A stretch of 64,000 nt of DNA, taken from Candidatus Latescibacterota bacterium. Its GTDB lineage: Bacteria; Krumholzibacteriota; Krumholzibacteriia; WVZY01; JAKEHA01. The stretch is taken from NCBI GenBank assembly GCA_963736125.1, contig CAVTNQ010000002.1, positions 292,989 through 356,988 of the forward strand. Reading direction: 5' to 3'. Position numbers and translations under genes: made by a program. This document shows, piece by piece, positions 8,505-57,777 of the stretch; the stretch's first letter is position 1; each line of letters begins with the position of its first letter. The notes beneath the pieces are model-generated. The model did not search any database and was not told the origin of the DNA. It saw only the letters and a program-made list of their open reading frames with translations.

Positions 8505-8507
8505 CGA

Positions 8508-9762: not shown

Positions 9763-9856
9763 CGCGCAGCCCTCCCGCCTTGATGCCCGCGTCCGCGGGC
9801 CTTATACTCCCAGCACACCATGACTGCAGTCTCATTCCCGCATTCTTTCTAGTTCT

Positions 9857-11405: not shown

Positions 11406-11407
11406 CG

Positions 11408-12617: not shown

Positions 12618-13071
12618 ACGGCCGCCGGTCGTCCTCGCAGAGCTTTCCGATGAGCATGTTGCCGACCTGCTCAGGATCGAGGGCGAACTATTTCCGGCAC
12701 CATGGACCGAAGCCATGTTTCGCCAGGAAGTGGAAGAGAAGTGGCTGTCGCGCTCTTTTGTAGCATTGCTCGACGAGAAGATTGTCGGCTATGTCATTGC
12801 TTGGTTCCTGCGCGGCGAAGTACACGTGCTGAACCTCGCCGTGACGACGAAACACCAGCGCAAGGGCATCGCGCGTTTTATGCTCGCGCACATCATCGGA
12901 CTCGCGAACGAAGAAGCGTGCCACCTCGTCACCCTCGAGGTGCGCGTGTCGAACGACCCCGCCAAGCTGCTCTATATGTCGATGGGCTTTGCACCGGTGG
13001 GAATCCGTCGCCGCTACTACCACGACAACAACGAGGACGCGCTGGTCATGACCAAGCGCTTGCGCGGATGA
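12604..13071 (+). CDS. rimI: Ribosomal-protein-alanine N-acetyltransferase (GNAT)
   Basis: GNAT motifs (LAVTTKHQRKGIARFML; YMSMGF) with the canonical tsaE-tsaB-rimI neighbourhood; the ATG at 12604 overlaps the tsaB end. Confidence 0.7.
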   Translation: MASSERPPVVLAELSDEHVADLLRIEGELFPAPWTEAMFRQEVEEKWLSRSFVALLDEKIVGYVIAWFLRGEVHVLNLAVTTKHQRKGIARFMLAHIIGLANEEACHLVTLEVRVSNDPAKLLYMSMGFAPVGIRRRYYHDNNEDALVMTKRLRG

Positions 13072-13817: not shown

Positions 13818-13943
13818 TCGATTACGACGCCAAGTCGAGGGCCGCCTATCGGCGGCCGGATTAGGGTTGTGGCCCGCTGTCGCGGGCCCGTATAGTCTCC
13901 CCAACACCCCAAGCACCCGAAGGGAAGGACGGTGCTTTCGTAG

Positions 13944-39778: not shown

Positions 39779-42700
39779 CGCGCGCGCGACGCATTCTTCG
39801 CTGGGTCGGTTTCGGCGTGGGAATCCTGCTGGCACTGGTCGTACTCGTGTCGGCCTTCGTTCTCTTCAGCGAGCCGGGTGCGCGGCTGGCGCTGGGATTC
39901 GCGAACCGGAGCGATGTGCCGGTTCGCGCGCGCTCGATCGAGGGGACGTTGGCGGGGCGCTTCGAGTTGCACGGCGTGGAAGTGCGGGTCGGACGGCTCT
40001 CGGCTTCGATCGACACCGTGCGCGTCGCGTGGCGGCCGCTGGCACTGCGCAAGCACCGCGTCGACATCACGGACGCGACGATCGCGGGGGCGCGTGTCGT
40101 GGTCGGACCGGCGGCGCCGGACTCGGTGCGCCAGGAGAAGAGCGCATCCGCCGACTCGACGCGCGAGCGCTGGGTGGTGACCGCCGATCGCGCGCGGGTT
40201 CGCAATGCCACCCTCGACGCACCCGGCGATGTGCACCTCGTCGATGTCGATCTGGTCGGAAGCGGCGGCCCGGACGGCTATCGCGCCGAGATCACGGCGT
40301 CGGGAGCAGCGTGGCGCGTTCCCGAATTGCGAGCGTTTGTGCGCGCGGCCGGCAACACGCGCGCGGTTACCGTCGACTCGCTCGACGTTCGATTGCTGGA
40401 CGGAACGCTCGCCGGCAACGCGTTCGTGCGCTGGAGCCCGGGGTTGTCGTGGCGCGGCCGCCTGCGCGGCGATTCGCTTCAAGTCGGCGAGTTGAGCGAC
40501 ACGCCGCGTGACTGGCTGGGTGCGGTCGCGTTCCGCGCGCAAACGACGGGGACCTTGCGCGAGGATTCCACGCGCATCGGCATCGACCTCGCGTCGCTGG
40601 ACGGTGTGTTGCGCGGTCGCGCGCTATCCGCGGGCGGACGCATCGACGTCGACGGAACGCGCATCGCGTCGCCGGGTGCCTGGGTGCGCTGGGGTCGTGC
40701 CAGTGTGCGCTTCTCCGGCCGCATGGACGAGATCGCGGACGTCACCCTCGACGCCACAGTACCGTCCCTAGCCGAAATTCTGCCCCGCGCGCAAGGGTCG
40801 GCGCGGTTGCGCGGTCGCGTCACCGGCACTTCGTCGAAGTTCGACGTCGACGTCGAGACGAGCGGTCGAGGCGTGCGCGTGGAGCGCCGGAGCATCCCCG
40901 ATTTCGACGCCACGATCGACGCGACGCTCGTCGCGCGCGACTACGTCCCGGAGAGCGCCGACCTGCGCCGCGCCGAGATACGAGTCGGCCGCGGGAAACT
41001 GGAGGTGCGGGGCGGCGCGTCGTGGCACGACGGCATCGCCTGGAAGGTGGCGCTCGCGGCCGACAATTTCGAAACGTCGACGCTGACACCCGCGCGTTGG
41101 AACCTGTACGGACCGCTCTCGCTGCGCGCCACGACTTCGGGAGAGCGACGCAGGCACGTGCGTGGCACCGCGTCGATCGAGACGCTGTCGGGGTCGATTC
41201 GTGGCGCCGCGCTGAGCGGTGCGGGGAGTGTGGTGGTCGACGGCGGCGAAGCGGACTTCTCGGACGTGCACCTCACGTGGGGCGATGCGCACGCGATCGC
41301 CGACGGTCACGTCGGCGCCACCCTCGACCTCGAGTTCGACGTCGTGGCACCCGACTTGGCTCGGCTCGATGCGACGCTGCACGGTGCCTTGTCGATCCAG
41401 GGGAAGGCGCACGGTGCGCGCACCCGACCCGTCGTCACGGCGACCGTCCGCGCCGACAGTCTGCGCACGCGCGGATACGCGGTGGATCACCTGCGAGCGA
41501 GCATCGACGCCGACCTCGCATTCGCGACGCCGGCCGACGTCCGCGTGTCGGCGTTGGGCGCGTCGCGGGGCGAGACCCGCTTCGACAGTGTCAGTGTCAA
41601 TATCGCCGGACCGCGCGATCGACACCACGCGTCGGTCCTGCTGGCGGCGGGTGACCGACGCCTCACGCTGTCGGTGACGGGTGCCTACGCGGATTCGGCG
41701 TGGTCGGGCTGGATCGAAGACGTGCGGCTTCGTCACCCCGTGGCGGGCGCATGGCACTCGCTCGGTCGCGCGTCCGTCGCTGTGTCTCGCTCACACGTGC
41801 AGCTCGATTCGCTCACCCTCGCGTCGGGGAGCGCGCGTCTTTCCGCCGTCGCCGACTGGCGACGCGGTGGTGCCGCGCGCGTCGATCTCGCCGCCGGCCC
41901 GGGGAAGATCGTGCGCGAAGGGAACGCGATCGAGTACAGCGGCCGGCTCTCGGCCCGCGCCGACACGACGGGTATCTTCGCGCGTCTCGATATCGACCTC
42001 GGTCGCGATGGTGCCCTCGCCAAGGTCGACGGAGAGGCGTCGATGCCGCACTTCGTCATCGGGCGCGATTCGCTCGCGACCCAGCCGCTCGAGGGCAAGA
42101 TCGACCTCCACTGCGCCGACATCGGGCCCGTGCTGGCGGTGCTCGCACCCGACCTGCGCAAGTCGTCGGGTAGGCTCACCGCGCAAATATCGCCCAAGGG
42201 AACCGCGGGGAACTTCGCGCTCGTGGGTCGCGTGGCACTCGAGAAGGCGCGCTTCGACCTTGCGTCCGGGCTGCACCTGCGGGACACGGAACTCTTGATG
42301 GTCGCGGACGGGGACGGCCGCGTGTCGTTGAACGGCACCGCGACGTCGGGCGGGGGACGCGTGCGGGTCGAAGCCACGAGCGCGCGGTCGGCGAAAGGCT
42401 GGATCGAGGGAAGTGTTACCGCCAAGGGCGAGCGCTTCCAACTGATCGACCAGCCCGACGCGCAAGTGTTCGTGTCGCCCGACGTGGAGTTGCGGTTGGA
42501 GCCGCATCACGCGGCCGTGACCGGTACCGTGCGCGTGCCATTCGCGCGCATCGAGACGGCACAGGTGCCGGCGTCGGCCGCCGCGACCTCACCCGACGTC
42601 GTGTTCGTCGAAGACACACTGGCGACGAAGGAGGCCACGACGATGACCGCGAAGGTACGCGTGGAACTCGGCGACAGCGTGAGCTTCACAGGCTTCGGGC

Positions 42701-43365
42701 TGCGCGCGCGACTGGCAGGAAGCCTGGACGTCGACGACGAACGCGGTCGTCCGACGCGCGCAACCGGCGAGATTCAGATCGTGGACGGAAAATATCGCGC
42801 GTTCGGCAGCGAGCTCAAGATCGACCCGGGCCGCCTCGTTTTCGGCGGCGGAGCGATCGACAACCCCGGGCTCGACGTGCGCGCATACCGCGGTTTGAGC
42901 ACCCAACAGGTCACGGTGGGCTCGGGCGACATTGTCGGCGTCATCCTGCGCGGCACGCTGCGCCGGCCGGAACTCTCCGTCTTCTCCAATCCAGCCATGT
43001 CGGAGAGCGAGATCATGTCGTATCTCGTGCTGGGCCGGCCCATGTCATCTGGTGATCAATCGGCGCTGGCCAGTGCCGCGTTGCTCATCGGCATGCAGCA
43101 GGGAACGCAGATCGCGGGCGACATCGGCGGACGCTTCGCGCTCGACGAAGCGTATCTCGAGTCCGGGAGCGAGGCCAACGAGACCGCCTTCGTGGCGGGC
43201 AAGTACCTCTCGCCGACACTCTACGTCAGCTATGCGACCGGTCTGTTCGAGAAGACCAACACCTTCCGCGTGCGCTACTCGCTGGCGAAGCGATGGACCC
43301 TGCAAGCGGAAAGCGGAGATGCCAGCAGCACCGATATCCTGTACTGGTTCGAGCGCGGGAAGTAG
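39775..43365 (+). CDS. tamB: TamB (translocation and assembly module subunit, DUF490/AsmA-like)
   Basis: GTG overlapping the tamA stop (GTGA); N-terminal TM anchor; about 1200 aa of beta-rich repeats; C-terminal DUF490-like end (LGRPMSSGD..., YVSYATGLFEKTN, RVRYSL...WTLQAESGD). Confidence 0.7.
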   Translation: MTRARRILRWVGFGVGILLALVVLVSAFVLFSEPGARLALGFANRSDVPVRARSIEGTLAGRFELHGVEVRVGRLSASIDTVRVAWRPLALRKHRVDITDATIAGARVVVGPAAPDSVRQEKSASADSTRERWVVTADRARVRNATLDAPGDVHLVDVDLVGSGGPDGYRAEITASGAAWRVPELRAFVRAAGNTRAVTVDSLDVRLLDGTLAGNAFVRWSPGLSWRGRLRGDSLQVGELSDTPRDWLGAVAFRAQTTGTLREDSTRIGIDLASLDGVLRGRALSAGGRIDVDGTRIASPGAWVRWGRASVRFSGRMDEIADVTLDATVPSLAEILPRAQGSARLRGRVTGTSSKFDVDVETSGRGVRVERRSIPDFDATIDATLVARDYVPESADLRRAEIRVGRGKLEVRGGASWHDGIAWKVALAADNFETSTLTPARWNLYGPLSLRATTSGERRRHVRGTASIETLSGSIRGAALSGAGSVVVDGGEADFSDVHLTWGDAHAIADGHVGATLDLEFDVVAPDLARLDATLHGALSIQGKAHGARTRPVVTATVRADSLRTRGYAVDHLRASIDADLAFATPADVRVSALGASRGETRFDSVSVNIAGPRDRHHASVLLAAGDRRLTLSVTGAYADSAWSGWIEDVRLRHPVAGAWHSLGRASVAVSRSHVQLDSLTLASGSARLSAVADWRRGGAARVDLAAGPGKIVREGNAIEYSGRLSARADTTGIFARLDIDLGRDGALAKVDGEASMPHFVIGRDSLATQPLEGKIDLHCADIGPVLAVLAPDLRKSSGRLTAQISPKGTAGNFALVGRVALEKARFDLASGLHLRDTELLMVADGDGRVSLNGTATSGGGRVRVEATSARSAKGWIEGSVTAKGERFQLIDQPDAQVFVSPDVELRLEPHHAAVTGTVRVPFARIETAQVPASAAATSPDVVFVEDTLATKEATTMTAKVRVELGDSVSFTGFGLRARLAGSLDVDDERGRPTRATGEIQIVDGKYRAFGSELKIDPGRLVFGGGAIDNPGLDVRAYRGLSTQQVTVGSGDIVGVILRGTLRRPELSVFSNPAMSESEIMSYLVLGRPMSSGDQSALASAALLIGMQQGTQIAGDIGGRFALDEAYLESGSEANETAFVAGKYLSPTLYVSYATGLFEKTNTFRVRYSLAKRWTLQAESGDASSTDILYWFERGK

Positions 43366-43388
43366 ACTAGCGGCGTGAGTGTGCCACC

Positions 43389-43825
43389 ATGACCCAACCC
43401 CTCGTCCGCCCCGCCACCGAACGCGACGCCCCCGAGGTCGCGCGCTTGCTGACCGCACTCGGTCATCCGACCGGCGCGGAGTCGATCGTGTCGCGCTGGG
43501 AGGAATGGATCGCGGCGGGGAACGTCGCGTTGGTCGTCGACGGCGACCGCGGGGCACTCTTGGGTGTCGCGACCTTGCACCACATGGTGGTACTGCACCG
43601 CCCGAAGCCGGTCGGACGCATCACGGCCCTCATCGTCGACGAGCGGCACGCGGACGCGGCGTCGGCCGGGCACTGGTGGCCGCCGCGGAAGCGGAGCTCG
43701 CGCGCGTGGGCTGCGGTTTGTTGGAGATCACGAGCAACGCGCGTCTGGTCGACGCGCACGCCTTCTACGAGCACCTCGGGTACGAGCGAACGAGCGCGCG
43801 CTTCGCGAAGATGCTCAACCGTTAG
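43389..43825 (+). CDS. GNAT-family N-acetyltransferase, with a 1-nt deletion near 43648
   Basis: N-terminal RPATERDAPEVARLL; the acetyl-CoA motif RGRGVGRALVAAAEAELARVGC and the C-terminal EHLGYE are readable only after shifting frame (ORF 43379..43825); the 377-aa ORF 43389..44522 is an artefact. Confidence 0.6.
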
Positions 43826-43832
43826 TTCCCAG

Positions 43833-44654
43833 CTAGAAAGCGATCTGCACGCTCACACCCGGGTCCCCCTCGATGGAAACGGGGTGGAGCGACACGCGGT
43901 CGTCCGCGATGGCGTGAAGCTGCGGGACGAAGTAGCCGATGCCGGCGCCGATCAAGTACCCCGCGATGGCGTCGGTGCGAAAGTGGTGGCCGGAGTCGAC
44001 GCGCAGGATGCCCGTGATCGCCGGCAACGTCGCCGCACCGGCCCACATCGCGATCTTGGCCTTCGGACTCTCGACGTACGCCGAAAAGACGCGCGCCATG
44101 AAGAAGCAATTGCACGCGGTCGACGTGGTGTGGCCCGAGTAGAACGACAGCCGCGCGGATTCCGTCGTTTTCTTGTCGAGTGGAGTGTCGGCGTCGTAGA
44201 CGTACGGGCGCGTTCGCAGCACCGTCGTCTTGACGACACCGTTGATCCCCAGATTGAGTGCCGTCGCTTCCAGCCACATGACCCCGATCGTGTGCCAGTC
44301 GCGCTTGGTGTCGTCGCGCACGAAGGTGGTGAGGGGAAGCAGGTACGAGATCGCCGTGAGCACATCGCCCGAATGCGAGCTTTCGTACGGATTGATGGCA
44401 CCGCGATCGAAGCTATTCACGTCGTCGGGATTGAGGGCGTTGATCTCGTCGACCGTGAGTGGGTCGACGTTGCCGAGGAGAACAAGACTCGTGACGCCGA
44501 GTGCGACACCCGAGCCCAATAGGGCGACCTCGCGCGTCTTCTGGAGTCGAAACGGCGACTGCGCCACACTCGTGTGCGCCATGGCCACGATCGTCAAGGC
44601 GACGATTGCAACGCGCACACCTCGGGCTACTCGAATGGGGAACTCGAACCGCAT
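43833..44654 (-). CDS. PAP2-superfamily membrane phosphatase
   Basis: Signal peptide; PAP2 motifs KxxxxxxRP (KTTVLRTRPY), SFYSGHT and RVDSGHHFRTDAIAG. Confidence 0.7.
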   Translation of the reverse strand: MRFEFPIRVARGVRVAIVALTIVAMAHTSVAQSPFRLQKTREVALLGSGVALGVTSLVLLGNVDPLTVDEINALNPDDVNSFDRGAINPYESSHSGDVLTAISYLLPLTTFVRDDTKRDWHTIGVMWLEATALNLGINGVVKTTVLRTRPYVYDADTPLDKKTTESARLSFYSGHTTSTACNCFFMARVFSAYVESPKAKIAMWAGAATLPAITGILRVDSGHHFRTDAIAGYLIGAGIGYFVPQLHAIADDRVSLHPVSIEGDPGVSVQIAF

Positions 44655-44790
44655 GGTGGGGGCCGATCTTACTGCACGCGCGGCAACGGGGCCAGCGCTA
44701 TCGCACCGAACCGTCGTGGACAATCCGCGGCGCGTGCGTTAGCCTGTCCTCCATGAAGGGCTCCTACCGAGCGCTCATGCTTTTGGCGGC

Positions 44791-47458
44791 ATGACGCTCA
44801 ACCCCGGCACCAAACTCGGTCCCTACGAAATCCTCGTCCCCCTGGGCGCGGGCGGCATGGGCGAAGTCTATCGCGCGCGCGACACGCGCCTGGGCCGCGA
44901 CGTGGCCATCAAGGTGCTGCCCCAGCATCTCTCGTCGAATCGCGGAAGTGCGCGCGCGCTTCGAGCGCGAAGCGAAGACGGTCTCCGGCCTCAATCACCC
45001 GCACATCTGCACGCTCTTCGACGTCGGCCGCGAAGGCGAGACGGACTTCTTGGTGATGGAATTGATCGACGGCGAGACGCTGGCGAAGCGCCTCACGAAG
45101 GGCCCGATGGCGGTGTCGGAGGTCGTGAAACTCGGCGTGCAGATCGCCGACGCGCTGGACGGCGCGCACCGCGCCGGCATCGTCCACCGCGACTTGAAAC
45201 CCGGCAACGTGATGCTGACCAAGTCGGGTGCGAAACTCATGGATTTCGGCCTCGCGCGCGCGACCGGCCTGGCCAATCCGTCGGGCAGCGGCGCGTCGAT
45301 GGAATCCCTCACGCAATCGCCCACGATCGCACAACCGCTGACGGCGGAAGGGACGATCGTCGGCACGTTCCAGTACATGTCGCCCGAACAACTCGAGGGC
45401 AGCGAAGCCGACGCGCGCAGCGACCTGTGGGCGCTGGGATGTGTTCTCTACGAAATGACGACGGGCAAACGCGCCTTCGAGGGCAAGAGCCAAGCGTCGT
45501 TGATCGGCGCCATCATGAATTCCCAGCCGGCGCCGATCTCGCAGTTCGCCCCCATGAGCCCGCCCGCCCTCGAACGCCTGGTCAAGCAATGTCTCATTCG
45601 CGACGCCGACGAACGCTGGCAGTCGGCCGGCGATGTGCGCCGCGAGCTGGAGTGGATTGCCGGCAGTTCGTCGCAGAGTGCGGCGCCGCCGATTGCGCAT
45701 CGCCGAAGATTCTCGCGCGGAGCGATCGGCCTTTTCGCCGGCATCCTGATCGCGGCCGTGGCGATCGCGCTCTCGTTCGGTCCGGGAAGGAAACACAGCG
45801 GCGCGGGGCCTCTCATGCGCTTCAGCCTGGAAGCGCCCCGCGGATCGATCCTGACGCAACCCGCCGAACTGGCGTTGTCGCCGGATGGGACCATGCTGGC
45901 GCTGGTCGCGGCCGACAGTGTTGGAAAAGCGTCGATCTACATTCGTCCTCTGGCGAGCGCGGAAGCCCGCGTACTACCGGGGACGGAGTTGGGTTCGCTC
46001 CCGTTCTGGTCGCCCGACAGCCGCACGGTCGCTTTCTTCTCCGGGGGCAAGCTGCGCAAGATTGCCGTCGGTGGTACCGAGCCGGTGGTTCTGTGCGATG
46101 CGCCCGACGCGCGCGGCGGTGACTGGTCCAAGAACGGCGTGATCGTATTCGCCCCCAACAATCAGGGCCCGATCGCGCGCGTGTCCGAAAACGGCGGAGA
46201 TCCGGAGCCGGTGACGACGATCAACGCAGCGCGCCACGAACGCGGCCACCGCTACCCGCAGTTTCTTCCCGATGGAAAACATTTTCTCTACGTGGCGGTC
46301 GGTGCCGACGAGACGGTGGTCACCTACCGCGCGTCGATCGAAGGCGGCGATGCCGAGGAAGTCTGCCAGGGTGGATCCGAGGCACGGTGGGCGGAACCGG
46401 GATATTTGTTGTTTCTAGACAGCGGAGTCAATTCTCCCCGCCGCCGTCTGCTCGCGCAGCGCGTCGATCCGGGCACCCTGCGCGCCACCGGAGATCGGGA
46501 ACTCGTGTTGGACCCGGTCAACGCGACCAACTTTGGCTATGCGAACGTGACCTCGGATGCCCGCAACACGCTCGTGGTGCAGCATTGGAGCGACGCCCAC
46601 CGGAGCCTGGAGTGGGTCGACCGGCGCGGCGTGAAGCTGGGCACCGTAGTCGACGACCTGGCGCTCGGCACGCTGGCACTGAGTCCCGACGGCGAACGAC
46701 TGGCGTATTCCGGCCTGGACCCGCAGGACCTGTTTGTCCTGGATCTCAAGACCGGTGTCTCCACGCGGCTGACCTTCGAGAACAAGAGCATTACGACCAT
46801 CGTGTGGTCGCCCGATGGCCACACCCTCGCGTTCTCACGTCTCTCGAGCGGATGGCAGATGTACATGAAAGCCGCGGACGGCACGGGACCCGATTCACTC
46901 CTGTTTCGCGGCCCCGCGATGTTCAACTTTGCCGACAATTGGTCGGAAGACGGACGCTGGATCGTCGCCGAGTGCGCGGACAGCAGCGGCAATCGCGATC
47001 TCTGGAAGATACCGATGCAGGGTGGCGGACGGCCGTCGGTGTATCAGCGAACGCCCGCGGCGGAACAGGGGGCGTCGTTTTCTCCAGACGGTAAGTGGAT
47101 CCTGTACCAGGTTCCCGAGGGCGACGAGTTCCCGCTCTATGTGCAATCATTCCCGACGCCAGGGTCGAAGTACCAGGTGGCTTTCAAGAATCCGCTGGGC
47201 GCGGGGTGGTCCAAAAAGGGGAATGCGATTTTGGTTGGTGGTGGCGATAACGAGGTGTTTTCCATCGATGTTTCCACTGCGGGCGGTTTCCGCCAGGGCG
47301 CCACACATCGTCTCTTCCGTATGGAAGCGGCCCAAATCTTTTCCGGCATCGCACCCGGCGAGCAGAAATTTCTGATGGCGCGGCTCAAAGACGTCTCGTC
47401 GCTTTCGCGCATCGAAGTCGTCCTCAACTGGCCGTTGCTCCTGAACCACTCGAAATAG
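44791..47458 (+). CDS. Membrane Hanks-type Ser/Thr protein kinase with TolB-like beta-propeller ectodomain (paralogue 1; 1-nt insertion near 44940)
   Basis: Kinase subdomains ([29 protein letters not shown]); a single TM helix; repeated LSPDG/FSPDG/WSPDG beta-propeller blades; the N-terminal 50 aa are in a different frame from the rest (ORFs 44791.. and 44948..). Confidence 0.7.
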
Positions 47459-47466
47459 ATCGAAAG

Positions 47467-50160
47467 ATGTCTCTCGTTCCCGGCACCAGACTCGGCCCCT
47501 ACGAAATCCTCTCGCCCCTCGGCGCGGGTGGCATGGGCGAAGTCTATCGTGCGCGCGACACGCGCCTGGGCCGCGACGTGGCGATCAAGGTGCTGCCGCA
47601 GCATCTCTCGTCGAACGCGGAAGTGCGCGCGCGCTTCGAGCGCGAAGCGAAGACGGTGTCGGGATTGAATCACCCGCACATCTGCACGCTCTTCGACGTC
47701 GGCCGCGAAGGGGAGACGGACTATCTGGTCATGGAACTCATCGACGGTGAAACGCTGGCAACGCGGCTCGCGCGCGGGGCCCTGCCGACCCCCGACGTGC
47801 TTCGCACCGGCACCGAGATCGCGGATGCGCTCGACCGCGCGCACCGCGCCGGTGTCGTCCACCGCGACTTGAAGCCGGGCAACGTCATGTTGACCAAGAG
47901 CGGTGCCAAGCTCATGGACTTCGGGCTCGCGCGCGCGACGGGGCTCGCGGGTTCGCCGGGCAGCGGGGCGTCGATCGCGGCGCTCACGCAATCGCCGACG
48001 GTTGCACACCCTCTCACCGCGGAAGGGACCATCGTCGGGACGTTTCAATACATGTCGCCCGAGCAGCTCGAAGGCGGCGAAGCGGACGCGCGCAGCGACC
48101 TATGGGCGATGGGCTGCGTCTTGTACGAGATGGCGACGGGCAAGCGCGCTTTCGAAGGAAAGAGCCAGGCGTCGTTGATCACGTCGATCATGGGGACGGA
48201 GCCCGCACCGGTTTCGCAGGTGGCGCCGACCGCACCACCCGCGCTCGAGCAACTCGTGCGCGCGTGCTTGGCGAAGGATCCCGCCGACCGCGTGCAGAGC
48301 GCCCACGATGTGAAGCTGCAGCTCTCGTGGATGGCGCAAGCGGGGTCGCAAGCGGGTGCACCGCGGCCCGCAGTCAAGCGGCGTCGAAGCCGCGACGCGC
48401 TGGCGTGGGCCGTCACCGCCGCGGCCGTTGTGGTTGCGATCGGCGCGTTCGTTTTGTCGAAGAAACCCACTGCCGGTTCACCGGCGGTGTATGCGTACTT
48501 GCAACCGCCGCACGGCGTGTTGTTTTCGTCGAGCACGGACCGGCCCTTGCCGCTGGCGATTTCGCGCGACGGTTCGACCATCGCGTTTTGCGCGCGCGAC
48601 GGAGAAGGCCCCGATCTCTTGTGGGTGCGCTCACTCGGCAACGACGACGCGCACCCCATCCCCGGGACCGAGGGAGCACAGGGACCGTTCTTCTCGCCGG
48701 ATGGGCGCTCGCTGGGATTTTTCGCCAACAACGAACTCAAGCGCGTCGACGTGGCCGGCGGTCCGGTGATCTCCCTCGCCAGCGGCATTGATCAACGCGG
48801 CGGGACCTGGAACCGCGACGGCGTCATTCTGTTCACTGGTAACTCGTACGGCCCGGTTTCGACGATCCCGGCGGACGGGGGTAGCGTGACCGCCGCGACG
48901 GCTCTCGACACGACGCGCGCCGAGACCACGCACCGATATCCTCACTTTCTTCCCGACGGACGACATTTTCTTTATTTGGCGCGCCGGGCCGGCGCGGGTG
49001 CGGGCGAAAACCCGACCATCTACGTGGCCGAACTTGGATCCAACACGCGCAAAGCATTGATGGAGGTGGCCTCCAATATTGCGTACGCGTCGGGTCACCT
49101 CATCTATATCCGCGGCGGAGTCTTGGTCGCGCAACGTTTCGATACCGGAAAGCTGGCCGTCGAAGGACCCGCCATCCCGTTGGTCGACGATGCGCGCATC
49201 GACACTCGATTCAGCCGGGGTGTGTTTGCGGTGTCGGAGAACGGCGTTCTCATCTGCATGACGGGGCGTGATCAGACGCGTACGCAGTTGCGCTGGCTGG
49301 ATCGCGCCGGGAAACCGTTGGGCGACGTCGGCGAGCCCGCGGACTACACGTATGGGGGCACACCCTGTATTTCCCCCGACGGAAGGAGCACCGTCATGCC
49401 GATTGCGAACGTCGACCGCGGTGTCTCCGATGTGTGGGTGGTCGATCTCGAATCGGGTCGGCGCCGGAAGCTCACCGTCGACACGCTCGACCATCCCGGC
49501 GCGCAGTGGCAGCCCGGTGGTCGGTCGGCGGTGGTGAGTACGAACACCACGTCGGGGAACGGTTCTCTCGAAGCGATGCAGTTCGATGGGAGACAGGAGA
49601 ACCTCGTCAAGTCGACCGCCGATTTCATGTGGCCCGAGTCGACCTTCGGGGACCGGTTGCTCTACTCGATCGAAACCCCGAAGAATGGGAGCGAGATCTA
49701 CCTCGCGTCGTTGTCGGGCGAAGCCAAGCCGGAAAAGTTTTTCGACACGCCGGCGCGAGTGTCGAGCGCGCAGTTTTCGCCCGACGGACGCTTCGTCGCG
49801 TACGTGTCCGACGAAACCGGACGCCCCGAGGTGTTCGTCGCGGCGTTTCCGCAGCCCGGGGGGCGTTGGCAGGCGTCGCAATCGGGGGGCATCGAGCCGC
49901 GCTGGAATCGAAACGGTCGCGAGCTGTTCTTCGTCGACCCCGAGAATCATGTCGTGTCGCTCGATGTGGAATTCGGTGCGGGTGGGTTCCGGGCCGGAGC
50001 GGCGCGCCCGCTTTTCCAATGGCACGGTTCGGCGGGGCTATGGCGATACGACGTCGCGCCGGACGGAAGTCGATTCCTCGTGGCGGCGGCTCTCGAAGAG
50101 GATCTGGCCCGGCCGGTGACGATTCTCACCGACTGGACGCGAAAGGTCGAAGGGCGCTGA
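47467..50160 (+). CDS. Membrane Ser/Thr protein kinase with TolB-like beta-propeller ectodomain (paralogue 2)
   Basis: Same architecture as paralogue 1; intact 897 aa; the kinase domain is about 90% identical to paralogues 1 and 3. Confidence 0.8.
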   Translation: MSLVPGTRLGPYEILSPLGAGGMGEVYRARDTRLGRDVAIKVLPQHLSSNAEVRARFEREAKTVSGLNHPHICTLFDVGREGETDYLVMELIDGETLATRLARGALPTPDVLRTGTEIADALDRAHRAGVVHRDLKPGNVMLTKSGAKLMDFGLARATGLAGSPGSGASIAALTQSPTVAHPLTAEGTIVGTFQYMSPEQLEGGEADARSDLWAMGCVLYEMATGKRAFEGKSQASLITSIMGTEPAPVSQVAPTAPPALEQLVRACLAKDPADRVQSAHDVKLQLSWMAQAGSQAGAPRPAVKRRRSRDALAWAVTAAAVVVAIGAFVLSKKPTAGSPAVYAYLQPPHGVLFSSSTDRPLPLAISRDGSTIAFCARDGEGPDLLWVRSLGNDDAHPIPGTEGAQGPFFSPDGRSLGFFANNELKRVDVAGGPVISLASGIDQRGGTWNRDGVILFTGNSYGPVSTIPADGGSVTAATALDTTRAETTHRYPHFLPDGRHFLYLARRAGAGAGENPTIYVAELGSNTRKALMEVASNIAYASGHLIYIRGGVLVAQRFDTGKLAVEGPAIPLVDDARIDTRFSRGVFAVSENGVLICMTGRDQTRTQLRWLDRAGKPLGDVGEPADYTYGGTPCISPDGRSTVMPIANVDRGVSDVWVVDLESGRRRKLTVDTLDHPGAQWQPGGRSAVVSTNTTSGNGSLEAMQFDGRQENLVKSTADFMWPESTFGDRLLYSIETPKNGSEIYLASLSGEAKPEKFFDTPARVSSAQFSPDGRFVAYVSDETGRPEVFVAAFPQPGGRWQASQSGGIEPRWNRNGRELFFVDPENHVVSLDVEFGAGGFRAGAARPLFQWHGSAGLWRYDVAPDGSRFLVAAALEEDLARPVTILTDWTRKVEGR

Positions 50161-50169
50161 CCGCGCGCG

Positions 50170-52869
50170 ATGACGTTGAACATCGGCACCAAACTCGGTC
50201 CCTACGAAATCCTCTCGCCATTGGGCGCGGGTGGGATGGGCGAAGTCTATCGCGCGCGCGACACGCGCCTGGGTCGCGACGTGGCGATCAAGGTGCTCCC
50301 GCAGCACCTGTCGTCGAATGCGGAAGTACGCGCGCGCTTCGAGCGCGAAGCGAAGACGGTGTCGGGATTGAATCACCCGCACATCTGCACGCTCTTCGAC
50401 GTCGGTCGCGAAGGCGACACCGACTTCTTGGTGATGGAGTTGATCGAAGGCGAAACGCTGGCGACGCGTCTCTCGCGCGGCGCGCTCCCGACCGCCGACG
50501 TGCTAAGACTCGGCACCGAAATCGCCGACGCACTCGACCGCGCGCACCGCGCCGGCATCGTCCACCGCGACTTGAAACCGGGCAACGTCATGCTGACCAA
50601 GTCGGGTGCGAAGTTGATGGACTTCGGACTCGCGCGCGCCACCGGGCTCGCCAGCTCGTCGGGCAGCGGCGCGTCGCTCCTCACGCAATCGCCCACCGTC
50701 GCGCATCCGCTCACCGCGGAAGGGACGATCGTCGGCACGTTCCAATACATGTCGCCCGAGCAGCTCGAGGGCAAAGAAGCCGACGTGCGCAGCGACTTGT
50801 GGGCGCTCGGGTGTGTGCTCTACGAAATGGCGACGGGCAAGCGCGCGTTCGACGGTGCCAGCCAGGCGTCTCTGATTTCGTCGATCATGTCGTCGAACCC
50901 GGCGCCGATTTCGCAGGTATCGTCGATGGCGCCGCCGGCGCTCGATCGCCTGGTGCAAGCGTGCTTGGTAAAGGATCCCGCCGACCGCATCCAGAGCGCG
51001 CACGACGTGAAGCTGCAATTGGGTTGGATCTCCGACGGCGGTTCGCAAGCGGGAGTCCCGAAAGTTGTCGCGAAGAAGCGCCGCGGTCGCGAACGCCTGG
51101 GCTGGTCGATCGCGGTCGGGCTCGCACTCTTGAGCGGCGCGTTGGGTCGTCAGCTCACGATGAAGTCCAGGGGACACGACCTCGTCACGCGCACGACCAT
51201 CGCGGCGCCGTCGGGGACGCACCTCGAGATTTCGGGCGACGACGCGGGTCCGCCCGCCATCTCACCCGACGGGACGATGTTGGTGTTCTCCGCCGTGGGC
51301 GCGGGCGCGGGCAAGCGTCTCTGGCTCCGGCGTCTCGACGAAATGACCGCGCGACCGTTGCAGGGCACCGACGAAGCGAGCTATCCGTTCTGGTCGCCGG
51401 ACAGCAAGTCGATCGGCTTCTTCAGTCCGACCAAACTCAAGCGACTCGATCTCGCGCAAGGTTCCGTCATCGCGCTGTCGGATTCGGTGGACGCGGCACG
51501 CGGAGGCACGTGGTCGTCGACCGGCGTCATTCTCTTTACGCCCAAGTTCGGCGCCGGTCTTTACCAGGTGCCGGCTTCCGGCGGTTCGCTGCGTGCGGTG
51601 ACAACACTCGACACCACGCTCGAAACGACGCACCGCTTTCCGCAGTTCTTGCCCGACGGACGCCACTTCATCTACTTGTCGGCCAACCACGAAGACCCCG
51701 ACGGCAACTCGTCGGCCATCTACTACGCCTCCCTCGACGGCGGCGACCGGCGTCGCTTGATCACGTCGAAGAGCAACGCCGTCTACGCGCAGGGTTTTCT
51801 CCTGTTCGTGCGCGACAGCACCTTGATGGCGCAGGAATTCGACGCGTCCAAGGGACAGTTGAAAGGCGCGCCGCGCGCGACGCGCGAAGTCGTCCAGCTC
51901 GATCGCTCGACGTGGAACGCAACCATTACAGCGGCGGAGAACGGTGTGTTGGTCTACGGCCTCGGCGGATGGGCGGGCAACAACCGCATCGTGATGGTCG
52001 ATCGCTCGGGGGTCCGGGTGCGCGACTTGGTTGCGTCCGGCAATTTCCTCAACATCGATCTGGCACCGGATGAACACCGGTTGGTGTACGAATGGCAGCA
52101 AACACCGCTGGCCGACGACTGGATCCTCGATCTCACGACGGGAACGCGGTCGCGCATCACCACCAATCCCGACGACGAGTCGTATCCGATCTGGCTCTCC
52201 GACGGAAAGCGGATCGCGTACGGCGGACGGCGTTCGAGCCGCTACCGCATCTTTTTGAAGCGTGCGGACGGTGCTGGTGACGAAACTCAATTCCTCGAGG
52301 ACCCGAACGTCGACGTGTGGCCGGTCGACGCGTCGGCGGACGGAAGATGGCTGGTGTTCGGTAAGGGCCAGGCGTCGGGAACGGCGCACGGCTCGTTATG
52401 GATGGCGTCGCTCACGGGTGGTTCGCCGCCGCGACAATTGCTCGCGGCCGCCGACGACTTCCAAGGCGCGCAGTTCTCGCGCGACGGAAAGTGGCTTGCG
52501 TTTTCCGCCAACGTGTCGGGTCGAACGGAAGTCTACGTGTCGCCGGTTCCGTCCGGTGACGAAGGACTCCAAGCCCGCTGGCAGGTGTCGGGAAACGGCG
52601 GCGACCGCCCCCGCTGGCGCGCGGATAGTCGCGAGCTCTTCTACGTGCGGGCCGACGGCATGATCATGGCCGTCTCGGTGGACGGAACCGGGGCGGAGTT
52701 TCGCGTGGTCGGCGAAAAAGCGCTGTTTCAAGTATTCCAGCGCATCCTGTTGCAGACCATCTGTGTGACCGGCGACGGCGAGCGCTTCGTCGTCAATACG
52801 CTCGGCGGCGACGAAGACGAACCGCTGGCGGTCGTCACCAACTGGCTCCAGACGCTCCCGCAGCAGTAG
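50170..52869 (+). CDS. Membrane Ser/Thr protein kinase with TolB-like beta-propeller ectodomain (paralogue 3)
   Basis: Same architecture; intact 899 aa. Confidence 0.8.
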   Translation: MTLNIGTKLGPYEILSPLGAGGMGEVYRARDTRLGRDVAIKVLPQHLSSNAEVRARFEREAKTVSGLNHPHICTLFDVGREGDTDFLVMELIEGETLATRLSRGALPTADVLRLGTEIADALDRAHRAGIVHRDLKPGNVMLTKSGAKLMDFGLARATGLASSSGSGASLLTQSPTVAHPLTAEGTIVGTFQYMSPEQLEGKEADVRSDLWALGCVLYEMATGKRAFDGASQASLISSIMSSNPAPISQVSSMAPPALDRLVQACLVKDPADRIQSAHDVKLQLGWISDGGSQAGVPKVVAKKRRGRERLGWSIAVGLALLSGALGRQLTMKSRGHDLVTRTTIAAPSGTHLEISGDDAGPPAISPDGTMLVFSAVGAGAGKRLWLRRLDEMTARPLQGTDEASYPFWSPDSKSIGFFSPTKLKRLDLAQGSVIALSDSVDAARGGTWSSTGVILFTPKFGAGLYQVPASGGSLRAVTTLDTTLETTHRFPQFLPDGRHFIYLSANHEDPDGNSSAIYYASLDGGDRRRLITSKSNAVYAQGFLLFVRDSTLMAQEFDASKGQLKGAPRATREVVQLDRSTWNATITAAENGVLVYGLGGWAGNNRIVMVDRSGVRVRDLVASGNFLNIDLAPDEHRLVYEWQQTPLADDWILDLTTGTRSRITTNPDDESYPIWLSDGKRIAYGGRRSSRYRIFLKRADGAGDETQFLEDPNVDVWPVDASADGRWLVFGKGQASGTAHGSLWMASLTGGSPPRQLLAAADDFQGAQFSRDGKWLAFSANVSGRTEVYVSPVPSGDEGLQARWQVSGNGGDRPRWRADSRELFYVRADGMIMAVSVDGTGAEFRVVGEKALFQVFQRILLQTICVTGDGERFVVNTLGGDEDEPLAVVTNWLQTLPQQ

Positions 52870-52895
52870 CACGCATCCTCTAGGGCGCAGCACCG

Positions 52896-52917
52896 CGTTT
52901 GCGCTACAATCCGGCGA
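52896..52917 (+). promoter_or_regulatory. Conserved kinase-gene leader motif CGTTTG(C/G)GCTACAATCC(G/C)GCGA immediately upstream of the ATG (possible -10 TACAAT driving a leaderless mRNA)
   Basis: The 25-nt block including the ATG is 23/25 identical to 56645..56669; TACAAT sits 7 nt before the ATG with no SD. Confidence 0.3.
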
Positions 52918-55890
52918 ATGCTTTCCCCCGGCACCCAACTCGGTCCCTACGAAATCGCGACACCGCTCGGAGCGGGCGGCATGGGCGAAGTGTATCGCGC
53001 GCGCGACACGCGCCTGGGCCGCGAAGTTGCCATCAAGGTTCTCCCGCGTCATCTCGCATCGAATCCGGAAATGCGCGCGCGCTTCGAGCGCGAAGCGTCC
53101 GCCATCGCGACACTCAAGCACCCGAGCATCGTCACCATTCATTCCATCGAGGAAGCGGCCGGCGTCCATTTCATGGTGATGGAGTTGGTGGAAGGCCGAA
53201 CCCTCGCCGACATCATCGCGGACGGCGAAATGTCACTCGAGCGATTCCTCGCGATCGCGGAGCCGCTCGCCGACGGCGTGGCGGCCGCGCACGCGAAGGG
53301 CATCATCCATCGCGACCTCAAACCCGCCAATATTCTCGTCGACGCCAACGGGCGCGTGAAGATTCTCGATTTCGGATTGGCGAAGCTCGCCGAGAAGACG
53401 TTTTCCGATTCGGACCAGACGGTCGGTTCGGAATCGCACACGCGCGACGGCCAGATTCTCGGCACGGTGGCGTACATGTCGCCCGAGCAAGCGGAGGGAC
53501 TCCCGGTCGACCTGCGATCGGACGTCTTTTCGCTGGGCATCGTCTTCTACGAGATGGCGACGGGGAAGAATCCTTTCCAGCGCGCGACCGTGGTCTCGAC
53601 GCTGTCGGCCATCTTGAAAGACACGCCCCCGTCGATCGTGGACCTGCGACCGTTGCCGGCGGCGCTCAACGACATCGTCGCGCACTGCCTCGAGAAGTCG
53701 CCCGCGCAGCGCTATCCGTCGGCGGCCGCGCTGCGCGACGACCTTCGCGTCTTGCAGACGAACACGACGGCGGAGAAGTTGGTGGCGGCGAAACGCGTGT
53801 CGCTGCTCGCAACACTGCGCAAGCCCCGTGTCGCCGTACCCGTGGCGGCGTTGGTGATCGCGCTGGGCGGGGTCGCCGCGTGGGTTCACCATCGCTCGAC
53901 GCGAACGCGCTGGGCGCGACAAGTGGCGCTGCCGGAAATCGAGCGCTTGCTCGACGCGACACCGTGGACCGGCGGTGCGGGGATGTGGAAAGCCTACGAA
54001 CTCGGTAACGAGGCCGCGCGCTTCCTCCCCGACGATCCCGTCCTGCTCGCTCTCGAAGAACGGTACTCCGAGCCGATGACCCTTCACACCGAGCCATCCG
54101 ATGCGCGCGTCTATGCCCGGCCGTTTGCGGCGGCGGATACCGCGTGGACGCTCGTCGGCAAGACTCCCATCGACACGCTGCGCTTCGTGCGCGGCGTTTT
54201 CCGAATCAAGATCGAGAAGAACGGCTACCTGACGGCCAACGACCTGTTCTGGAACGGCTTCTACGACGAGAATGATCGTGTCTACGAATTGAAACGTTCC
54301 GACCAAGTCCCGCGCGGGATGGTGTTCGTTTCGGGTCAAGCGCCGCTCGTGCGATCGGACGGAGTCACCGAGGGCGTGCACATGCCGGGCATCGAGCACT
54401 TGGCACCGCAGAAACTGGGTGATTTCTTCGTCGATCGTTTCGAAGTGACCAACCGCGTCTACAAGCAATTCGTCGACGCGGGCGGTTATGGCGATCCGTC
54501 GTTCTGGAAGGAGCCGTTCATCGAGAACGGACGCACCGTGAAATGGAAGGACGCCATGGCGCGCTTCGTCGACTCGACGCAACGCCCCGGGCCGGCCGGT
54601 TGGGAAGTGGGGGATTATCCGGACGGAAACGACCGCTTTCCCGTCACGGGCATCAGCTGGTATGAAGCGGCGGCCTTCGCCGAGTTCGCCGGTAAGCAAC
54701 TTCCCACCATCTATCACTGGGACCGCGTGGCGCTCACGTGGGCGAGCGGCGACATCGTGCCGCTGAGTAACCTGACCACCAATGGGCTCGTGAACGTGGG
54801 CAGCACGGAGGGAATGAATCGCTACGGTGCCTTCGACCTCGCCGGTAATGCACGCGAGTGGTGCGCCAACGCCACCAGCCGGGGCGATCGTTTCATCTTG
54901 GGCGGCGGTTGGAACGATCCCGCGTATGCATTCAACGACGCCTACGCGCAGTCGCCGTGGGATCGTTCGGAGACCAACGGCTTTCGGTGCATTCGATATA
55001 TCGGGGCCGACGTCGACCGCGTGGCCTTGTCGGACACCGTCGAGGTTCCATTTCGCGATTTTCTAAACGAACCGGCCGTGTCGGACGAGACGTTCGCGCT
55101 GTACACCAACCAATTCCGCTACGACAAGACTCCGCTCGACGCGGACATCGAAGGGACCTCGGAAACCGACGACTACGTGCGCCAGAAGATTGCGTTCGAC
55201 GCGGCGTACGGCGGCGAGCGCATGACGGCGTATCTGTTTCTGCCGAAGAAGAGCACGCCTCCCTATCAAACGGTCGTATACTTTCCGGGATCGGGGTCGA
55301 TCCACACGCGATCGAGCGCGGACCTCTCTCCGGGCACGAGCGATTTCTTCCTGAAGAGCGGACGCGCGTTCTTGTGGCCGGTGTTGAAGAGTACCTACGA
55401 ACGCGGCGACGACCAGACCTCCGACTACGCGGACGAAAGCAATCGCTACAAGGACCACGTGGTGATGTGGACGAAGGACATCATGCGGTCGATCGACTAC
55501 TTGGAGACGCGCGCGGACATCGACGCGAGCCGGCTCGCCTTCCTGGGCCAAAGTTGGGGAGCCGAGTTGGCGCCGGTCGTGCTCGCGGTCGAGCCGCGAC
55601 TCAAGGCGGGCATCCTGGTGGTGGCCGGACTGGGCTTTCAGCGCTCGCAGCCGGAGGCCGATCCGATGAGCTACATTCGCCACGTGCTCGCACCCGTCGT
55701 CATGCTCAATGGGAAGTACGACTTCTTCTTTCCGTACGAGACGTCGCAGGTTCCCTTCTACGAGCTTCTTGGAACTCCAAGAGATCACAAGAAGCTTGTC
55801 GTGTACGAATTCGGCCACGCCATTCCCGCGACGGATCGCGCGCGCGAATCACTGGCGTGGCTGGATCGCTATCTAGGCCCGGTTCGATGA
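52918..55890 (+). CDS. Membrane Ser/Thr protein kinase fused to an FGE-sulfatase (SUMF1-like) domain and a C-terminal alpha/beta-hydrolase domain
   Basis: Kinase motifs ([18 protein letters not shown]); a TM helix; FGE-sulfatase-like region ([36 protein letters not shown]); then an alpha/beta-hydrolase with the nucleophile elbow GQSWGA. Confidence 0.7.
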
Positions 55891-55987
55891 GTCGCGTCGC
55901 GGTTCCACATGGATAGAAGAAACGGCCATCCCGGATTTCCGGGGTGGCCGTTCTCGTGACTCGGTCGAAGCGGTGTCTACCGGGTGA

Positions 55988-56545
55988 CTACCGATAGAGC
56001 GCCTTGATACTCCCCCACGTGGACGAGTTGGTGGGGAGCGGGTTGCTCTCGACCGTGAGTTCGATCGTCCAGGTGGCGGCAACGACGGCGAATCCCGTTG
56101 TGACCTCGCACTTGTACTGCCCGTCGACGATGATCGGAATGATCGGGTTCACCAGGCTGAACGGGGCATTCGTGATGTTGTCGCCGGCCTTCGCCACCGC
56201 ATGGGACACGACGGTTCCAAACGGCGGGGCCGCGGCGACCGGGCCGGACATGTCGAAGCTTGAAATGTCGCGGGGGTTGCTCGCAGAATACACCCAATGG
56301 ATGCTCACGATCGAAAGACCGGCGGGCAGGTTGGCGAAGAATGAGTCCTGCGTATTCGACGTCGGCGTGGGTCCAATGGTGCCCGTCCATACGTTGACGC
56401 CGATATCGAGCACGAACGTGGGCGGGTTGGATTGGTCGAGATCGCCATCGACCGCTTCGTTATAGCTGACGGGCGCGGCCACGCCTGCCCCGACGAGGGC
56501 CAGCGATACCAAAGCGCACAGGAAGCCGACTCTTGCAGTTGTCAT
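55988..56545 (-). CDS. Hypothetical secreted protein
   Basis: ATG at 56545 preceded by a GGAGG SD; signal peptide MTTARVGFLCALVSLALVGAGVAAP; about 185 aa; no confident domain assignment. Confidence 0.5.
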   Translation of the reverse strand: MTTARVGFLCALVSLALVGAGVAAPVSYNEAVDGDLDQSNPPTFVLDIGVNVWTGTIGPTPTSNTQDSFFANLPAGLSIVSIHWVYSASNPRDISSFDMSGPVAAAPPFGTVVSHAVAKAGDNITNAPFSLVNPIIPIIVDGQYKCEVTTGFAVVAATWTIELTVESNPLPTNSSTWGSIKALYR

Positions 56546-56644
56546 GGGGAAACCTCCGATTGAGTTGTTGTGATTACGTAATGGCTCCGTCCGGTCTCCC
56601 ACTTTCGTTCTCGGACACTTAACAGCGTACACGACTTGGTTCCC

Positions 56645-56720
56645 CGTTTGGGCTACAATCCCGCGAATGCGAATCATCGGAAAAAACATCTCGCATTACG
56701 AGATCGTCGAGAGGAGGTGA
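56645..56720 (+). other. Relic 5' end of a Ser/Thr kinase paralogue: the conserved leader motif plus a 17-codon ORF (MRIIGKNISHYEIVERR) that ends in the selD ribosome-binding site
   Basis: Leader motif 23/25 identical to the one upstream of kinase 4; the peptide keeps the G5 and YEI(V/A) register of the kinase N-termini, then stops; its final codons (AGG AGG TGA) form the SD for selD. Confidence 0.45.
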
Positions 56721-56727
56721 CAATCCC

Positions 56728-57777
56728 ATGGCCGAGAAAGATCGCTTGTTTCGCCTGACCGAATTCGCGTCATGCGCCGGTTGAGCCTCTAAATTCAGCG
56801 CGGCGGGGCTGCGCGAAATACTCGGCAAGTTGCCGGTTCCGGCCGATCCGAATGTATTGGTGGGTCACGCCGGGAGCGACGACGCCGGGGTCTATCGACT
56901 CTCGGACGACTCCGCGATGGTAGTCACGGTGGATTTCTTTACACCCATCGTCGACGACGCGTACGACTACGGCCGTGTTGCGGCGACCAACTCGCTCTCC
57001 GACGTGTACGCGATGGGCGGGCGCCCGATCGTGGCACTCAACATTGCGGGCTTTCCGGAGAACACGATTCCACCCGACGTGCTGGGCGAGATCATCCGCG
57101 GAGGCGCCGACGTCGCGCGCGCGGCGGGGGTTTCGATCCTGGGCGGTCACACCGTCAACGACGCCGAAGTGAAATACGGGCTCGCAGTGATCGGTATGAT
57201 CGACCCGCGTCGCATCGTGCGCAACGCCGGTGCGCGCGCGGGAGACGTCTTGATATTGACGAAGGCGATCGGAACCGGCGTGCTCGCGACGGCCTTGAAG
57301 CAGCGCACGCTTTCTCCCGAGCGAACGCGCGCGTTGGTCGCGTCGATGACGCAGCTCAATCGTGACGCCGCGGAGGCGATGCTTCGCCACGACCCGCACG
57401 CGTGCACGGACATCACCGGCTACGGGCTCGTCGGTCACGCCAACGAAATGGCGGAGGGAGGCAATGTCACCATCGTGCTGCGCGCGGCCGGCGTTCCGGT
57501 GCTCGAAGGCGCCCGCGAAGCAGTAGAGCAAGGCCACCTCACCGGCGGCGGCAAGGCGACGCGTCGTTTCATGCAGGACAAGGCGCGCGTCTCATCGGCA
57601 ATCGACGAGACGACGACGTCTCTGCTCTTCGACCCGCAGACGTCGGGCGGCTTGTTGATCGCGGTCGCACCCGAGCGCGCGCCCGCGTTGCTGGCCGAAC
57701 TCAAGCCGATGCATCCGCACGCCGCGATTGTCGGCGAGTGCATCGCGCGTCGCGACGTCTCCATCATCGTCGAATGA
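56728..57777 (+). CDS. selD: Selenide, water dikinase (selenophosphate synthetase), a selenoprotein with an in-frame UGA (Sec) at 56782-56784
   Basis: ATG at 56728 preceded by GGAGG; the N-terminus MAEKDRLFRLTEFASCAG-U-ASKFS aligns with the SelD motif RLTQYSHGAGCGCK with TGA at the Cys/Sec position; the rest (NVLVG..DDAGVY, TVDFFTPIVDD, RVAATNSLSDVYAMGG) is canonical SelD; the ORF track only reports the part after the TGA (56830..57777). Confidence 0.8.
56794..56817 (+). promoter_or_regulatory. Candidate bacterial SECIS hairpin downstream of the selD UGA
   Basis: UUC-A-GCGCGG / CGGGG loop / CUGCGC-GAA: a 9-bp stem with one bulged A and an apical loop about 22 nt after the UGA. Confidence 0.35.

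Follow-up and report, generated by a model that had tools for sequence, protein, structure and literature searches.

A four-gene array of receptor-type Ser/Thr kinases in Krumholzibacteriota with old, distinct sensors and kinase domains probably homogenised by gene conversion

Soil and sediment phyla are rich in receptor Ser/Thr kinases (STKs) that bear a large periplasmic domain, yet a ligand or substrate is known for almost none of them. Among the described representatives is PknD of Mycobacterium tuberculosis (PDB 1rwi), which carries an extracellular six-bladed beta-propeller. In Planctomycetota and Myxobacteria, membrane-spanning STKs have expanded that carry WD40, TPR or FGE-sulfatase domains on the periplasmic side (PMC11032199, citing Perez et al. 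2008), and the tandem duplicates and species-specific kinase clades found there are ascribed to “duplication and/or recombination” (PMC11032199). The bacterial STK atlas also contains kinase families linked to FGE-sulfatase domains. Paralogous segments in bacterial multigene families, such as duplicated tuf genes and rRNA operons, are kept alike by gene conversion, a non-reciprocal exchange whose expected marks are tree incongruence and low silent-site divergence. Here, we analysed an array of four receptor-type kinase genes (g1 to g4 in 5' to 3' order) that occupies positions 44791–55890 of a 64,000-nucleotide stretch of a Candidatus Latescibacterota genome (assembly GCA_963736125.1, contig CAVTNQ010000002.1, positions 292,989–356,988; hereafter the window). 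Taken as a whole, the locus is likely to be an old, operon-like array of receptor kinases with distinct and conserved sensors, the kinase modules of which have been homogenised by conversion, and in which a frameshift in g1 probably reflects a consensus error.

The four genes are co-oriented and separated by intergenic gaps of 8, 9 and 48 nt. Their predicted features are listed below.

44791..47458, + strand: g1, receptor Ser/Thr kinase with a double beta-propeller ectodomain, 888 aa after removal of base 44940; Pkinase match at residues 12–277 and PD40 in the repaired protein
44824..45622, + strand: kinase domain of g1 (Pfam Pkinase, 2.4e-47; catalytic motifs)
45722..45778, + strand: transmembrane (TM) helix of g1 (Kyte-Doolittle 19-residue mean 2.55, the sole peak ≥1.4)
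47467..50160, + strand: g2, receptor Ser/Thr kinase, 897 aa; kinase 47500–48300, TM helix 48400–48456, double TolB-like propeller ectodomain 48469–50157
50170..52869, + strand: g3, receptor Ser/Thr kinase, 899 aa; kinase 50203–50997, TM helix 51097–51147, propeller ectodomain 51172–52866 (Pfam, motifs and TM prediction)
52918..55890, + strand: g4, receptor Ser/Thr kinase, 990 aa; kinase 52948–53733, TM helix 53830–53886, beta-sandwich ~54067–54255, FGE-like domain 54397–54996, CE7-like alpha/beta-hydrolase 55228–55875

All four proteins score 162–169 bits against the Pfam Pkinase profile (cut-off 31.7), and the G-loop (GxGxxG), VAIK, alphaC Glu, HRDLKxxN, DFG and SPE motifs are complete in g2, g3, g4 and the repaired g1; by profile and motif set they are predicted Hanks-type Ser/Thr kinases. 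A hydropathy calculation places one dominant hydrophobic segment at residues ~305–330 of each protein, with 4–7 Lys/Arg on its N-side, which fits a bitopic topology in which the N-terminal kinase is cytoplasmic and a single TM helix connects it to the C-terminal domain in the periplasm. Pfam, motifs and hydropathy thus agree with the initial annotation of this DNA, which had described four consecutive same-strand membrane kinases with large ectodomains. It had also put the kinase identity of g1–g3 at about 90% and spoken of near-identical repeats with long identical DNA stretches, both of which are overstated. The kinase domains of g1–g3 are 82.1, 83.8 and 88.6% identical at the protein level, and the DNA repeats, 774–876 nt long, are 82–84% identical with longest exact matches of 77, 59 and 40 nt. 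The kinase of g4 is 49–51% identical to those of g1–g3 overall, with the exception of its first ~170 nt (84–88.5% DNA identity). The activation segment is long and Ser/Thr-rich (...GTFQYMSPE), and it is nearly identical in g1–g3.

The sensors of g1–g3 match PD40 with 52–69 bits (cut-off 20.9), and each, at ~560 aa, is modelled as two TolB-like six-bladed beta-propellers in tandem. That these ectodomains are TolB-like and strongly diverged, as first proposed, is borne out by the PD40 scores and by an identity of 30–33% between paralogues. A TolB orthologue of the Tol-Pal system was considered and ruled out, as the ectodomain model is all-beta and anchored to a kinase, and the neighbouring genes encode PAP2, TamAB and peptidases.

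Homologous loci were fetched from related metagenome-assembled genomes (MAGs), among them L001, L003, L024 and L081, the kinase genes of which carry suffixes (A2, A3, B0, B2, E2, E3); window copies carry the prefix W_. In L001 (a Krumholzibacteriia MAG, 1–17383), at least seven tandem kinases include the orthologues of g2, g1, g3 and g4 in that order, followed by a second FGE-type kinase and another PD40 kinase. L081 holds g1, g2, a PEP-mutase gene, g3, g4 and an extra PD40 kinase; its PEP-mutase family gene (283 aa, L081 5073–5924) lies between the g2 and g3 orthologues, and the window has neither this gene nor the extra PD40 kinase. In L024, g2 is directly followed by g4 without g3, and in L003 a different PD40 kinase (L003_B2, 7323–9995) precedes g4, with an ectodomain only 21–23% identical to every other in the set and a kinase 74–79% identical to those of g1–g3. 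The array thus appears to be old and variable in membership between relatives.

Each ectodomain type has its own orthologue across L001, L003, L024 and L081 (67–85% identity; to L001, 80.7% for g2, 73.3% for g1, 67.2% for g3 and 76.6% for g4). The ratio of nonsynonymous to synonymous divergence (dN/dS) between orthologues is 0.05–0.20 in the ectodomains and 0.04–0.25 in the kinases, and the orthologous kinase and ectodomain halves show similar dN. Because the ectodomain tree resolves into clean orthogroups (98–100% bootstrap) and dN/dS is low, the sensors of g1–g3 are, to judge from these comparisons, ancient, distinct and conserved under purifying selection. Same-strand arrays of four to seven receptor kinases also occur elsewhere, in an Acidobacteriota MAG (L033, seven genes) and in Bacteroidota MAGs (L005, L012 and L015, four to six genes), and at least three kinase genes are present in 16 of the 80 fetched loci with a kinase match.

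The kinase halves have a different history. Between the g1–g3 paralogues, dS is 0.53–0.69 in the kinase and 1.30–1.53, and thus saturated, in the ectodomain; the third-position identity at conserved four-fold codons is 0.64–0.72 in the kinase versus 0.39–0.45 in the ectodomain, with a chance level of 0.37 overall (0.32–0.58 by codon box). In the trees, the W_g3 kinase nests within the g2 orthogroup with 100% bootstrap, while the W_g3 ectodomain is orthologous to L001_A3 and L081_E3. For codons 1–140 the orthology between window and L081 is lost, and W_g1, W_g2, W_g3 and L081_E3 group together at 100% bootstrap, whereas codons 141–280 and the ectodomains keep it (98–100% bootstrap). Within codons 36–76, W_g3 shares 96% identity with W_g2 and 89% with its own orthologue, and over the whole N-lobe W_g2 and W_g3 share 87% identity versus 84% for W_g3 and L081_E3 and 85% for W_g2 and L081_E2. 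Paralogues are thus closer than orthologues in the N-lobe, and for W_g3 also relative to L001, but not in the C-lobe when window and L081 are compared.

A GENECONV-like permutation of polymorphic sites gave p ~0.001 for g1–g2 and g2–g3, and paralogue pairs within L081 and within L001 came out much the same, whereas the orthologue pairs were not significant (p = 0.08 and 0.42). In the control arrays from other phyla (L033; L005, L012 and L015), the ectodomains are 23–49% identical and the kinases only 49–74%, which makes the 82–89% kinase identity of g1–g3 an apparent outlier. Because of the silent-site contrast, the tree conflict, the shared runs in paralogues but not in orthologues and the control arrays, the data support repeated, patchy and 5'-biased gene conversion among array members as the process that homogenised the kinase half. 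Conversion on the catalytic half had been suggested at the outset, and the silent sites, tree conflict and permutation test sustain it. The signal follows an apparent gradient: it peaks in the N-lobe, declines in the C-lobe and is absent from the juxtamembrane region. A different kind of mosaic is found in g4, in which the DNA identity to the L081 orthologue (L081 8682–11666) is 77–88% in the kinase and 92–100% after about codon 235–250, with a dS of 0.5 in the kinase part versus 0.19 after it. This pattern indicates recombination at the level of lineages or replacement of a kinase module at the domain boundary, and the sharp breakpoint implies that the end of the kinase domain also acts as a recombination boundary.

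In the window, g1 is interrupted by a single base.

44940..44940, + strand: private single-base insertion that shifts the g1 frame at codon 50

Here the initial annotation, which listed four whole genes, overlooked the extra base; its four coding regions stand, and g1 as assembled splits into two open reading frames (ORFs), 44791–46122 in frame 1 and 44948–47458 in frame 2. The window reads TCGAATCGCGG at this site, and the paralogues read TCGAA[T/C]GCGG. The base is missing from the g1 orthologue L001_A2, from L080, an independent, near-identical ENA contig of 183.5 kb, and from either paralogue in the window and in L080; the site resembles a merged T/C variant, with AAT-C-GCG in the window and AAC-GCG or AAT-GCG elsewhere. 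L080 is 99.67% identical to window positions 37747–60160 over 22.4 kb with conserved gene order; its g1 is intact (888 aa), and its g2 is split by two private 1-nt insertions. Because private indels hit different genes in two near-identical assemblies, the g1 frameshift is probably a consensus error of this assembly rather than a pseudogene.

Two further indel differences lie upstream of the array. A private additional base at 39537 fuses TamA and TamB into one ORF of 1774 aa (38041–43365; POTRA, Omp85 and TamB) with a truncated Omp85 match, and in L080 TamA (577 aa) and TamB (1198 aa) are encoded by two genes with a 4-nt overlap; from this comparison, a TamA-TamB fusion was rejected as an indel artefact. 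Another indel difference at 43111 alters the TamB C-terminus, and here it is the window whose frame follows the Pfam TamB profile all the way to the end. Consensus indels thus seem to be present in both assemblies, and single-base indels in the long-read consensus of MAGs can mimic both pseudogenes and gene fusions. Seven substitutions between window and L080 are also clustered within 11 nt at 56736–56746 (GAGAAAGATCGCTTG in the window, GACAAAGACAATCTG in L080), in the short gap between two ORFs on the minus strand (55988–56689 and 56770–57537).

Several other explanations can be weighed against homogenisation by conversion. The initial annotation had proposed a recent tandem duplication with a diversifying sensing half, and fast or positively selected change of the sensors, with the kinases staying alike, would suit both the tandem arrangement and the contrast in identity between kinases and ectodomains. 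Such a history is very improbable, as each ectodomain has its own orthologues, 67–85% identical, in four relatives, the silent sites of paralogous ectodomains agree no more often than by chance, the low dN/dS of orthologues speaks for purifying selection instead of diversification, and the similar dN of orthologous halves means that unequal rates cannot explain the contrast. Much stronger purifying selection on the kinases without any conversion, including constraint at the codon level, would agree with the low dN/dS of orthologous kinases and with the first ~57 residues, which are conserved throughout the wider family, including g4 and L003_B0. We find this quite unlikely, since silent-site similarity far exceeds chance in the kinase half only, kinase and ectodomain trees conflict at 100% bootstrap, runs of shared polymorphism are significant in paralogue and not in orthologue pairs, and equally old arrays in other phyla have much less similar kinases.

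The exchange of whole kinase or sensor modules at the juxtamembrane boundary, within a genome or between related lineages, would account for the jump in identity between g4 and L081, the outlying ectodomain of L003_B2 on a kinase 74–79% identical to those of g1–g3 and the varying gene order and content (g2, g1, g3, g4 in L001; g3 missing in L024; PEP-mutase and an extra kinase in L081). To this extent the domain swapping first suggested holds, through the differing array membership and the g4 breakpoint. As the explanation of the kinase similarity it is unlikely, for that similarity is graded and patchy, higher in the N-lobe than in the C-lobe and with short near-identical tracts, and several conversion tracts fit it better than one swap; the two processes are compatible and not mutually exclusive. 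That collapsed or chimeric repeats or duplicated contig ends made the array or its kinase similarity has next to no probability. The private 1-nt indels in the kinase repeats of both assemblies (window g1 at 44940; L080 g2 at two sites) could hint at it and keep part of the earlier warning of a collapse-prone site alive, but the private window indel in TamA lies outside the repeats and points to a general consensus-error rate. The array can be taken as real because L080 independently has it in the same order, as do, through orthologous arrays, four other MAGs, and a collapse is unlikely because the repeats, shorter than 900 nt, are well below the identity range in which assemblies collapse.

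Some observations weigh against homogenisation by conversion as a complete account. The conversion does not appear to be recent, given a kinase paralogue dS of ~0.5 and C-lobes of window and L081 that track orthology. Very recent conversion between strains was rejected after polarisation of the 12 window-L080 substitutions in the kinase repeats, which are mostly private derived bases of the window, with L080 matching orthologues and paralogues. The permutation test models rate variation along the gene only partly, and the neighbour-joining trees use 130–260 columns, with many weak internal nodes. The g1 frameshift could be a real, strain-specific pseudogenisation, and neither a PP2C phosphatase nor an FHA partner gene was found among the scanned neighbours of the array.

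The fourth gene carries a different sensor. An AlphaFold2 (AF2) model of its ectodomain (pLDDT 89.4) consists of juxtamembrane helices, a beta-sandwich, an FGE-like domain and an alpha/beta-hydrolase, and the beta-sandwich region scores as PEGA in some homologues. The FGE-sulfatase and hydrolase domains named in the initial annotation are confirmed, the former by Pfam and the latter by PDB matches and fold. The FGE-sulfatase match reaches 72.8 bits (cut-off 23.3), and solved formylglycine-generating enzymes (FGEs) match the domain at E 1.4e-8 in a PDB sequence comparison. True FGEs, human and bacterial, have a catalytic Cys pair in a GGS-x-x-C-x4-C motif. The corresponding stretch of g4 contains no Cys, with its position judged by inspection since the phmmer alignment to FGEs stops short of the region, and the domain is thus predicted to be non-catalytic and not a true FGE.

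For the C-terminal domain of g4, the Pfam DLH and PETase scores stay just under their cut-offs, and it matches lipase/dienelactone hydrolase in the PDB at E 3.7e-6 with Ser, Asp and His aligned. In Foldseek, CE7 acetyl-xylan esterases are closest (TM-score 0.63–0.66), and 61 homologues all conserve the triad residues Ser (GQSWG; GxSWG), Asp (KYD) and His (GHA). By sequence and model, the domain is a putative CE7-like serine esterase with an intact Ser-Asp-His triad. More than 7,500 matches were obtained for g4, the best 120 of which are all at least 53% identical across the whole ectodomain, and full-length relatives occur in MAGs of Acidobacteriota, Bacteroidota, Gemmatimonadota, Calditrichota and Myxococcota. 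These matches place g4 in a very widespread and uncharacterised cross-phylum family, separate from g1–g3.

The array is bounded by two further features.

43836..44723, − strand: PAP2 phosphatase gene, the upstream neighbour (Pfam PAP2, 1.2e-18; PAP2 also called in L080)
55922..55951, + strand: GC-rich hairpin 32 nt past the g4 stop codon, ACGGCCATCCCGGA-TTT-CCGGGGTGGCCGT, read directly from the sequence

Because the upstream PAP2 gene lies on the opposite strand, g1 would begin a new transcription unit, of which the hairpin is a possible end. The short gaps and the hairpin after g4 suggest that g1–g4 are co-transcribed as one unit. A consensus scan for promoters and terminators across 43300–56800 was uninformative, with counts at shuffle expectation (1 versus 1.7 and 11 versus 10.7), and the terminator scan missed the hairpin. 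No extra kinase copies were found elsewhere in the 64-kb window.

The wider window agrees with the related loci as to the host. Its seryl-tRNA synthetase (7236–8504) has only Candidatus Krumholzibacteria among its named best matches, at 75–82% identity, followed by one Latescibacterota at 70%, and the closest kinase loci are in Krumholzibacteriia or Latescibacterota MAGs. Exact-protein look-ups for W_g2, W_g3 and the representative of the SerRS cluster (100% identical) returned no entry. These matches place the host in Krumholzibacteriota, which replaces an earlier comparison with Acidobacteria-like bacteria; for the kinases, too, the named best matches are Candidatus Krumholzibacteria, and Acidobacteriota do carry relatives. 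The rest of the window encodes LptD, TamAB, a Mur ligase, polysaccharide synthesis genes and ABC exporters, the ordinary chromosomal content of a diderm bacterium. It also includes an unusually long LptD-like ORF (17144–20707, 1187 aa) that joins LptD_N/OstA, an LptC-related stretch and LptD_2, and a multihaem cytochrome-like ORF (21366–22826) with Cytochrome_C554 and weak MtrC/MtrF-like matches. A histidine-kinase-like ORF (8508–10684, HATPase_c) overlaps the start of a response-regulator ORF, the sole other signalling pair among the scanned ORFs.

Together, these observations are consistent with four bitopic receptor Ser/Thr kinases encoded in an old chromosomal array that resembles an operon. 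In each protein, a cytoplasmic Hanks-type kinase would be followed by a juxtamembrane stretch rich in Lys/Arg, then by one TM helix and the periplasmic sensor. Conversion between array members would hold the kinase modules of g1–g3, and of further members in relatives, at 74–89% identity. Each receptor may bind a different periplasmic ligand, and binding would lead to dimerisation and then to autophosphorylation of the activation loop. With activation segments and substrate-binding lobes that hardly differ among g1–g3, these kinases probably pass several different periplasmic inputs on to shared cytoplasmic substrates, and several sensors may thus feed the same downstream targets. That the shared kinase module is itself selected and not a by-product of proximity seems rather doubtful; in that case the array would be a many-inputs-to-one-output hub with shared substrate specificity, heterodimers and cross-phosphorylation, and with sensor modules gained, lost and exchanged at the juxtamembrane boundary. 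If true, this would be a plug-in system of receptor-kinase cassettes, typical of Krumholzibacteriota and related groups. The locus separates the history of the catalytic half, shared and overwritten from neighbours, from that of the sensing half, which is old, distinct and conserved. Trees of kinase domains, on which claims of “lineage-specific expansion” usually rest, can therefore mislead where conversion is active.

Compared with known systems, the array clearly belongs to a known kind of gene family and does not constitute a new system; its evolutionary pattern is modestly interesting. Literature searches on PD40/TolB receptor kinases and on gene conversion in bacterial STK arrays found no direct precedent, nor any paper on conversion confined to one domain in arrays of this kind, although conversion as such is well known in bacteria. 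The topology and logic of PknD match those of the array, but PknD has one NHL-type propeller where g1–g3 have two tandem PD40/TolB-type propellers, is only 14% identical in sequence, belongs to a different phylum and does not lie in a tandem array with a shared kinase module. In contrast to TolB and its relatives (PD40, Tricorn_N and Tricorn_2nd), the propellers of the array lack the TolB N-terminal alpha/beta domain, are tethered through a TM helix to a kinase and are not encoded in a Tol-Pal operon. As a full-length member of the Pkinase–FGE-sulfatase–alpha/beta-hydrolase family (annotated “protein kinase” or “dienelactone hydrolase”), g4 shows nothing distinctive beyond the differing histories of its kinase and sensor halves relative to L081. 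Conversion in tuf genes and rRNA operons differs from that proposed here, which is limited to one domain of multidomain receptors and is incomplete (82–89%). The STKs of Planctomycetota and Myxobacteria share the topology and logic of the array, in that a single kinase fold is combined with many different repeat or FGE-sulfatase domains in the periplasm, whereas the array occurs in Krumholzibacteriota, has PD40 rather than WD40 or TPR sensors, and allowed recombination to be tested against ectodomain orthology.

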